Shown here: positions 5,767-6,859 of the stretch, one piece after another | Position numbering within the stretch: the stretch's first letter is position 1 | Layout: the number at the start of each line of letters is the position of its first letter | NCBI GenBank assembly: GCA_965261595.1 | Contig: CBDHDG010000006.1 | Span: 608,001 to 672,000 of the forward strand | DNA from: a bacterium | GTDB lineage: Bacteria > UBA8248 > JACPRG01 > G963555815 | Reading direction: 5' to 3' | DNA length: 64,000 bases | The notes under the pieces: model-generated | The model's database searches: none | Told to the model about the DNA's origin: nothing | Seen by the model: the letters and a program-made list of their open reading frames with translations, nothing else | Made by a program: the position numbers and the translations under genes

Positions 5767-5788
5767 GGGGCTGAGGGGGGAGTGTGGC

Positions 5789-5903
5789 GGGCCGGGACCC
5801 CCTGCTTTCGTAGAGGGTAGGGGGTCCCGGCCCCTACGAAACAACGCCGGACGGGTGTGTAGGGCGGGGACAGACAGCCCCCCGGCTGAAGCCCCGCCCC
5901 TAC
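5789..5903. repeat. REP-like palindromes (GTAG-type)
   Basis: GGGCCGGGACCCCCT (5789-5803) is the reverse complement of 5819-5833; GTAGGGCGGGG...CCCCGCCCCTAC spans 5859-5903. Confidence 0.65.
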
Positions 5904-5961
5904 ATTTCAGAGCCCCTACCATCAAATCTGGGGTAGTGAGTCAGTTTGATTTTCTGGTCGC

Positions 5962-5995
5962 AAAAAGAAGAACCCCACCTTTCGATGGGGTTCTT
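5962..5995 (-). terminator. Intrinsic terminator closing the candidate ncRNA
   Basis: AAGAACCCCAUC-GAAA-GGUGGGGUUCUU 12-bp stem followed by CUUUUU. Confidence 0.8.
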
Positions 5996-6098
5996 CCGGC
6001 ACAACCGCTATCACGGCCCCGCGTGGCTTGCCTTCGCCAGCCTGGGGAGCCGGCCACCCTCTCGGGTGATCTTCCAATACCGCCGAAGCGGTGACAAC
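5962..6098 (-). ncRNA. Candidate structured ncRNA downstream of the PemK/MazF-like gene
   Basis: TTGACA 3 nt after the toxin stop; enclosing stem GUUGUCAC/GUGAUAGC; hairpins with UUCG and GAGA tetraloops; terminator. Confidence 0.6.
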
Positions 6099-6133
6099 CG
6101 AAATTTCGGCCAATCCATCGATTTTGTCAACCC

Positions 6134-6340
6134 CTAGAGCGAAAGTGCGAACCGAATTGCGGCCTGAATATTCTCAATCACATCTGGTGACAAAACCGGG
6201 GTTTCATAAACCCGCCGGCCCTCTTCTTTCCCGACCATCAATCGATCAAGCCGATCATAGGCCACGGTGTTGATCATATCGCACTTGACCCATTGGTCGG
6301 CCTCCGATCTCCTGAAGGGAAGACTGCCCTTTCCTGGATT
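6134..6340 (-). pseudogene. PemK/MazF-like toxin, C-terminal half
   Basis: QWVKCDMINTVAYDRLDRLMVGKEEGRRVYETPVLSPDVIENIQAAIRFALSL* matches the PemK-like C-terminal pattern; the 5' half is replaced by repeats. Confidence 0.65.
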
Positions 6341-6341
6341 T

Positions 6342-6424
6342 GGGGACACCACACATAATTCCAGAAATAAGTATGGTGTCCCCATAATTCTCCGTTCCCA
6401 TAATTCTCCCCCCCATAATTCTCC
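6342..6424. repeat. Inverted repeat plus three tandem CCCATAATTCTCC units
   Basis: GGGGACACCA (6342-6351) / TGGTGTCCCC (6374-6383); 13-mer at 6381, 6397 and 6412. Confidence 0.8.
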
Positions 6425-6486
6425 CACAAACAAATGGCCGATCGGGAGATGAAGGAAACTCTTCCTGCCCGAATCCCGGCGATCCT

Positions 6487-6603
6487 GTCATTCCCGCGAA
6501 GGCGGGAATCCAGAAATCCATCGAGGTTCGACACGAAGCAATAGAGTCGTGGAAACGGCCTCCCATCCACATCGGCCTGGATTCCCGCCTTCGCGGGAAT
6601 GAC
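6487..6603. repeat. REPIN/dRS3-like inverted pair
   Basis: GTCATTCCCGCGAAGGCGGGAATCCAG (6487-6513) and its exact reverse complement (6577-6603); ATTCCC-N8-GGGAAT core. Confidence 0.85.
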
Positions 6604-6859
6604 CGTCGCGGCGGCTCTACAGCCAGCCGTCCCCCGGAAGCCCGTGCGGACTCCCGTCGGCTCTCAACCGACATCCGCCGCAGTGAAGGGCCTCCAGACA
6701 GCCTGCCATCTTTTTCCGCCTCACATTCGAAATCGTGTGATATCGTGGATGGGCAAAGGACAAACCCCACAGCGCCCGGCCATGGCGCGTGGAGACGCGG
6801 CCCGGTCTCCCCGGCGCGGGGCTCGAGGGCTTCCCTCCTCTCCCGTGAAGGGATTCCCC

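Follow-up and report, generated by a model that had tools for sequence, protein, structure and literature searches.

When a 64,000-nucleotide stretch of bacterial DNA (the window) was compared with homologous loci, a structured RNA gene was found directly behind the remnant of a PemK/MazF-like toxin gene, and the same RNA was found next to intact relatives of the toxin, one RNA per toxin. MazF/PemK proteins are textbook type II toxins, the archetype of toxins with protein antitoxins. Here we consider it probable that this RNA and its MazF-like neighbour work as a type III-like toxin-antitoxin pair, in which the RNA would bind the nuclease directly and inhibit it. A broader reading, to which we give somewhat better than even chances, is that the pair represents a very widespread class, unrecognised until now, in which a genuine MazF/PemK nuclease would be checked by an RNA with three hairpins, present in a single copy, whose invariant 8-nt loop would serve as pseudo-substrate; on this reading, plasmids and prophages have carried the module into at least five or six phyla. 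The first-pass annotation of the window had proposed a non-repetitive RNA antitoxin, a proposal supported here by comparative genomics, with neutralisation itself being what we infer. Three outcomes set beforehand as refuting the idea (no conserved structure downstream of homologs, a consistent upstream protein antitoxin, or a dispersed repeat) were all checked and none occurred.

The RNA gene of the window lies on the minus strand. Its conserved core (6009-6095, ~85 nt), delimited by a covariance-model match, consists of three hairpins. From sequence and model, P1 (CGC-UUCG-GCG with a UUCG loop) was placed at 6079-6092 and P2 (CACCC-GAGA-GGGUG with a GAGA loop) at 6054-6069; the model places a purine-rich joiner between them (6070-6078). 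The long arm P3 (6014-6052) ends in an 8-nt apical loop (6028-6035). A promoter of its own precedes the RNA, with the -35 box TTGACA (6125-6130) located 3 nt past the toxin stop codon and a weak -10 box GAAATT (6102-6107) after a 17-nt spacer, ~7 nt ahead of the first base of the RNA. It ends in an intrinsic terminator (5962-5997) with a stem of ~14 bp, a GAAA loop and a U tract. All the minus-strand coordinates, the hairpins and the terminator originally described for a non-coding RNA behind a PemK/MazF-like gene are present. A consensus promoter scan did not flag TTGACA-17-GAAATT in the window because the -10 box is weak. A closing stem (6098-6091/6014-6007) had also been drawn around the hairpins. 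Its pairs are possible in the window, but it was rejected as a feature of the family, with no covariation and 56.6 % of the family columns paired versus 58.8 % in shuffles; its 5' end (6098-6091) is at or ahead of the predicted transcription start.

When a 143-nt stretch of the minus strand was folded, a free energy of -72.6 kcal/mol was obtained, compared with -54.6 ± 3.8 kcal/mol for 200 shuffled sequences (z = -4.74), none of which was as stable. The RNA stretch has one copy in its own 6.17-Mb genome, where the covariance-model match has a genome-wide E-value of 1.7 × 10−8. The core scores 63.1 bits with model R1 and 57.0 bits with model R2, both values being inflated by the presence of the window sequence in the model seed. 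The promoter, all three helices and the terminator are retained. Contigs of related strains differ from the window RNA at three positions (6048, U.G to C-G; 6061, GAGA to GAAA; 6069, U.G to C-G), and the structure is intact in each case. The window RNA departs from the consensus at conserved positions, namely the base that closes P1, the final base of the joiner and base 3 of the loop, so it may have begun to decay. Just one RNA library (X20) contains part of this stretch; it covers only the repeats 6482-6516 and 6575-6610 and parts below 5937, and leaves the RNA itself uncovered.

The toxin gene in the window is a C-terminal relic (6134-6319, minus strand), carried by an open reading frame at 6134-6433 (minus strand) with its TAG stop codon at 6136-6134. 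As the first-pass annotation had noted, its 5' half is missing: when aligned to the 131-aa full-length homolog P0004, only residues 71-131 are matched, and the missing N-terminal half is the part that bears the invariant arginine. The relic matches Pfam PemK_toxin with an E-value of 0.097, below the curated cut-off. It is the only toxin match in its own genome at E ≤ 1. A dispersed repeat (6335-6450) with 32 matches in the genome and raised depth in DNA runs stands where the N-terminal half of the toxin would be expected, and may have caused the disruption; within it, a 15-nt tandem array (6380-6425) was identified by Tandem Repeats Finder. One run of related strains' contigs has a 1-nt insertion in the relic. 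Since the toxin gene is wrecked and the genome has no second copy, we read the RNA gene of the window as a likely orphan antidote, remaining after toxin loss.

Other repeats were observed on both sides of the locus. Two long, GC-rich perfect hairpins (5782-5840 and 5857-5904) are located in the gap that separates the terminator from the next gene, with only chance matches to microRNA models. The depth of DNA runs rises about tenfold at 5870-5937, and therefore at least one of these hairpins belongs to a repeat. A short palindromic REP-like repeat with the core C-G-C-G-A-A-G-G-C-G occurs at 6482-6516 and 6575-6610. In metagenome runs its summed contig depth is 10^4 to 7 × 10^4, with many contigs joined through it. 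This organism group appears to carry it as a dispersed repeat in very high numbers.

When a 173-nt stretch was searched against 60 relatives by a BLAST-type DNA search, only chance-level fragments were returned. The RNA family is too divergent for BLAST, and homologs were therefore sought via the protein. In the window's class, three genomes contain intact homologs, and a similar set of hairpins with visible compensating changes is found directly behind each gene. A scan with one genome per species gave 259 toxin relatives, of which 80 loci were fetched; going by record titles, these span Alpha-, Beta- and Gammaproteobacteria, Planctomycetota, Geobacter and other 'Deltaproteobacteria', Nitrospinota, Acidobacteriota and Candidatus Saccharibacteria. 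By inspection, the RNA element is present behind the toxin gene in nearly all 80 loci. Model R1, built from a 19-sequence seed, found matches in 53 of 86 sources, and model R2, rebuilt from the R1 matches, in 77 of 86, with one match per source and always on the strand of the toxin. With default filters, R2 detected the RNA in 73 of the 80 species-representative loci, and with filters off L042, L068 and L052 also reached E ≤ 0.01 (76/80). Weak matches at the expected spot were observed in L050, L078 and L038 with filters off, the second of these loci being cut by the end of its contig. Even with filters off, no RNA match was obtained in L036, L011 and L012, all three of which are truncated or broken toxin copies.

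Viral contigs, none of which had been used in model building, contain 137 toxin relatives. When 80 of these loci were fetched, the RNA was found in 71 with default filters and in seven more with filters off (78/80; E ≤ 0.01). One of the two remaining loci (L116) has a divergent, AT-rich version of the RNA by eye, and the model gave no RNA match in the other (L117). Toxin relatives are also present in 84 plasmid records, and the RNA lies behind the toxin gene on three small plasmids of Polaromonas, Citrobacter and Fluviibacter. Five isolate genomes have exactly one toxin gene each; in four of the five there is a single genome-wide RNA match (E ≤ 0.01), 20-93 nt behind the toxin gene, and the RNA of the fifth is a weak locus-level match. 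Together with the single copy in the window's own genome, these counts dispose of the concern that the segment could be a dispersed repeat. In a reverse search, the RNA model was run over 51 genomes of the window's class and matched only the three genomes with intact toxins, the window and an orphan RNA in genome G008 (L101:1501-1580). The orphan lies behind a membrane-protein gene with no toxin gene near; it has its own -10 box, a promoter and a terminator, and its apical loop is shortened.

A more distant toxin subfamily (35 % identity) is carried by E. coli plasmids; it was observed in 42 of 5426 complete genomes and was never chromosomal. On plasmid CP057092.1 (L093:2470-2595, by eye), TTGACA-17-TAAACT precedes a shorter RNA-like unit, made up of two small hairpins and a terminator, and only the toxin CDS is annotated. 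Model R2 gives no match to this short unit. The shortened variant would extend the principle of RNA control to these plasmids.

When the 19-sequence seed was folded with RNAalifold, the consensus had 18 pairs, 15 of them with compensatory changes. In the alignment A4 (77 matches), 96.6 % of cells are paired, whereas shuffles reach 64.1 % and slid controls 36-44 %; double changes occur in 17 of 18 pairs. The independent viral set (A7) gave similar values, with 95.8 % of cells paired versus 62.2 % in shuffles and 35-43 % in slid controls, and double changes in 16 of 18 pairs. A4 and A7 were fitted to the model, which biases their covariation counts towards the model's structure; covariation is present already in the seed, which was aligned by MAFFT only. 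Compensatory changes, seen in all three helices and in several phyla, show selection on the RNA fold, and the conserved downstream structure anticipated among the homologs was thus found with heavy covariation. The consensus RNA begins with 5' G-U-U and continues with P1, which is either short or extended on its inner side, a purine-rich joiner that ends in A-A-G-A-C or A-A-G-U-C, P2 between joiner and P3, and a long P3 whose covarying 2-4-bp tip closes the 8-nt loop G-A-U-N-N-C-A-A. The variable parts of the RNA are covarying paired stems and the single-stranded parts are conserved across phyla. The RNAs of the window, L028 and L023 contain no tandem repeat, there is one model match per locus, and no processing sites are evident.

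Two further pairings were tried for the consensus RNA and gained no support. A pseudoknot in which the joiner (C-U-U-G) would pair with the loop end (C-A-A-G) is possible in 71 % of cells versus 71.6 % in shuffles and has no covariation. When the apical loop was paired with the U-rich tail behind the terminator, duplex energies did not differ for cognate and non-cognate combinations (permutation p 0.34, 51 pairs), and covariation was again absent.

Toxins with a full-length match were never seen without the RNA, when the weak matches (L038, L050 and L078) and those made by eye (L116 and L093) are counted and L117 is set aside. The RNA persists beside the toxin relic of the window and alone in G008, and the broken toxins of L011, L012 and L036 are without RNA. 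This distribution bears on an alternative that we regard as unlikely, though the best of the alternatives: that RNA and protein form a ribonucleoprotein with another job, the RNA being a cofactor, activator, sensor or dedicated substrate that is, for example, cleaved or remodelled on phage infection. The tight one-to-one linkage of RNA and toxin would suit such a complex, as would the frequency of the module on viral contigs (137 relatives) and plasmids (84 records). Most members also have A-C-A within the conserved loop, and A-C-A is the cleavage motif of E. coli MazF according to the reference list of PMC8860590. However, the consensus RNA contains no variable single-stranded 'guide' segment, and broken toxins without RNA together with RNA without toxin fit an antidote better than a cofactor, an asymmetry argument that rests on few cases (three broken toxin copies and two orphan RNAs).

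In the homologous loci, TTGACA lies 17 ± 1 nt ahead of a TAnnnT box upstream of the RNA, and the commonest boxes are TTGACA with GATAAT, GATACT, TATATT or TATAAT at a 17-nt spacer. When a strict test was applied (TTGACA-17-TAnnnT, at least 9 of 12 matches and at least 5 of 6 in the -35 box), 37 of 75 distinct upstream regions were positive, compared with 1.6 in shuffles. In intact toxin genes, the -35 box is located inside the last codons, where TTGACA is read in frame as Leu-Thr. This accounts for the conserved Leu-Thr in the C-terminal tail of the toxin, a stretch of protein on which a DNA signal thus imposes a constraint. When a strict script test was applied behind the RNA, 56 of 75 distinct members had a terminator-like hairpin and a U run, and several of the misses have visibly interrupted U tracts. 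In two alphaproteobacterial loci (L030:3020-3060 and L058:3020-3060), the terminator is replaced by a T-arm-like fragment with an acceptor end C-C-A, after which a tRNA-like start follows. ARAGORN and Rfam called no tRNA or tmRNA at these fragments, which may be the scar of an integration site.

In most loci the toxin gene is followed by the RNA on the same strand. Five loci have the RNA first and then the toxin (L028, L035, L127, L128 and L173), and in two (L111 and L112) the RNA is convergent to the toxin, with its own TTGACA-17-TATATT promoter. Since adjacency is kept across three gene orders, a trans-acting partner is favoured and an element of the toxin 3'-UTR is disfavoured. A trans-acting RNA could also control synthesis of the toxin, either as a type I-like small RNA on the toxin mRNA or through an effect on its translation or stability. 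We consider this doubtful, and a little more so than a ribonucleoprotein with another job. Like many base-pairing small RNAs, the RNA is predicted to be an independent small transcript with a strong promoter, a terminator and a U-rich tail, and in three of the RNA-first loci (L028, L035 and L127) the terminator ends 6-9 nt ahead of the toxin ATG, so that toxin expression in such loci needs read-through. Against this, the variable RNA parts are covarying stems and the single strands are conserved across phyla, while the toxin leaders are not. In addition, antisense pairing at the toxin translation start was tried as a candidate and rejected: the apparent advantage of cognate pairs (p 0.001) was 0.6 kcal/mol at the start region, and advantages of similar size were obtained at four control regions (0.05-1.6 kcal/mol). 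We read this advantage as an effect of base composition.

No protein gene that could serve as an antitoxin is conserved in these loci. When ORFs of at least 70 aa from the 80 loci were clustered, the toxin was found in 80/80 and its antisense shadow ORF in 41/80, and the next cluster comprised four loci. Among ORFs ending within 300 nt upstream, clustered over the same 80 loci, no family was present in more than two. An XRE-type HTH gene lies directly upstream of the toxin in two of the 80 loci (L032 and L057) and could be a protein antitoxin or regulator there. No protein-coding neighbour is conserved, and the module therefore has no protein antitoxin, which bears out the original expectation that none would consistently be found upstream. 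It is very improbable that the RNA-like element has no functional connection with its neighbour, whether as a mere promoter, terminator or insulator block or as a passenger on the mobile element, with the protein antitoxin encoded elsewhere: the HTH gene upstream in two loci and transposase remnants upstream in four would agree with it, but three helices carry compensatory changes in several phyla, adjacency is kept in three gene orders, no other gene is conserved nearby and there is one RNA per toxin genome-wide. The remnants are ORFs ending at the toxin start in four alphaproteobacterial loci (L025:2238-2486, L034:2280-2495, L041:2241-2495 and L044:2228-2473) that have a common C-terminal K-R-G-P-Y-K-K-R-like motif, which we take to be the C-terminal remnant of a transposase. 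This hints that in some alphaproteobacteria the module travels with, or adjoins, an insertion sequence.

Full-length homologs of the toxin match Pfam PemK_toxin (PF02452) above the curated cut-off (E-values of 4.2 × 10−15, 1.6 × 10−11 and 4.2 × 10−13). In the AlphaFold model of the toxin (pLDDT 91.7), the best solved matches are MazF of S. aureus, M. tuberculosis and B. subtilis with TM-scores up to 0.84, and by this model the protein is a true MazF fold (SH3-like barrel). A profile of 54 sequences reaches E. coli MazF (5ck9 and 3nfc) with an E-value of 0.0066. In the alignment with 5ck9, K-R-P of the family falls on R-P of MazF and V-P-x-S/T on V-P-C-T-T, and the arginine aligned with R29 of E. 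coli MazF is invariant in the 54 sequences. The aligned E. coli residues are presumably the catalytic Arg29 and Thr52. The PADLOC defence models gave no match for three toxins, and NCBIfam yielded only a sub-threshold match to MazF. As a separate observation, comparison of A6 with A4 suggests that the toxin motif past the invariant W (V-K-G-D, A-K-C-D or V-K-A-D) follows the subtype of the RNA joiner, the subtypes being G-U-C-U-A-A-G-A-C, C-U-U-G-U-G-A-G-A-C and C-U-U-A-A-G-U-C. Such tracking could reflect contact, or shared ancestry only.

We prefer to regard the RNA as an antidote because this nuclease family is otherwise always paired with an inhibitor, yet no protein inhibitor gene is present, and because the RNA is tied strictly to the gene, has a strong promoter and is under structural constraint. 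The ToxIN-like layout of some loci and the presence of the module on mobile DNA argue for the same function, as does the fact that full-length toxins were not seen without the RNA, which is itself seen beside a relic and alone. On this basis, the module would be an autonomous and mobile unit of two genes, one of them encoding a MazF-fold endoribonuclease. Its own strong sigma-70 promoter would yield the ~85-nt RNA in excess, and toxin transcripts that read through would probably supply more of it at their 3' end. By binding the nuclease directly, the RNA would keep it inactive, and the invariant 8-nt apical loop and the purine-rich joiner would be the likeliest contact or pseudo-substrate sites. 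Once the RNA is lost or outrun, for example upon loss of the plasmid or prophage or under phage attack, the nuclease would be freed. In the window, a repeat element would have replaced the 5' half of the toxin gene and the RNA would survive as an orphan antidote. The module may serve in the maintenance of plasmids or prophages or in phage defence.

If this is true, the pair would be a new architecture in RNA-based control of toxins, in a subfamily with matches in 259 species genomes, 137 viral contigs and 84 plasmid records. It would account for many 'solitary' PemK/MazF genes that genome pipelines label as type II, and would provide a compact protein-RNA pair for structural study and tool building. 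To our knowledge, RNA antitoxins that bind a protein are known only from three families, all of them repeat arrays. A literature search, whose reach stopped short of most subscription journals, found no description of the RNA or of an RNA partner for MazF/PemK, and there is no account of the RNA in the available parts of 10.64898/2026.09.22.753630, PMC3879964, PMC2701414 and PMC3141249.

Three known systems are comparable to the module. Rfam contains a pemK RNA motif, which we take to be a motif of Bacillota located upstream of pemK-family genes, and so in another phylum. It resembles the present RNA in being associated with pemK-family genes, but it has no match to the window or to 20 homologous loci at the gathering score. 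More generally, when these sequences were run against Rfam 15, as the first-pass annotation had suggested, no family matched at the RNA at the gathering score, and matches at E ≤ 10 were at chance level only. With the type II systems (MazEF, PemIK and Kid-Kis), the module shares the toxin fold, the Pfam family and the aligned arginine and S/T stretch; it differs from them in that a structured RNA gene is present instead of a MazE/PemI-type or other conserved protein gene.

The closest comparison is with the type III systems (ToxIN, CptIN and TenpIN), which, in the available part of PMC8860590, consist of a promoter, tandem antitoxin repeats, a terminator and a ToxN-type toxin that processes the array. 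As in these systems, an endoribonuclease toxin lies beside a non-coding RNA gene with no protein antitoxin, a minority of our loci have the order of promoter, RNA, terminator and toxin start seen in ToxIN, and modules occur on plasmids and phage-derived DNA. On the other hand, the RNA described here is a single-copy, ~85-nt molecule with three hairpins, whereas the type III antitoxins are ~36-nt pseudoknot repeats in tandem. The toxin mostly comes first here and the RNA has a separate promoter. In addition, the toxin is a member of Pfam PemK_toxin with MazF proteins as its best fold matches, and it is not a relative of ToxN, CptN or TenpN. By analogy, the RNA/MazF pair would be type III-like in its working, yet it is built without two defining features of the known families.
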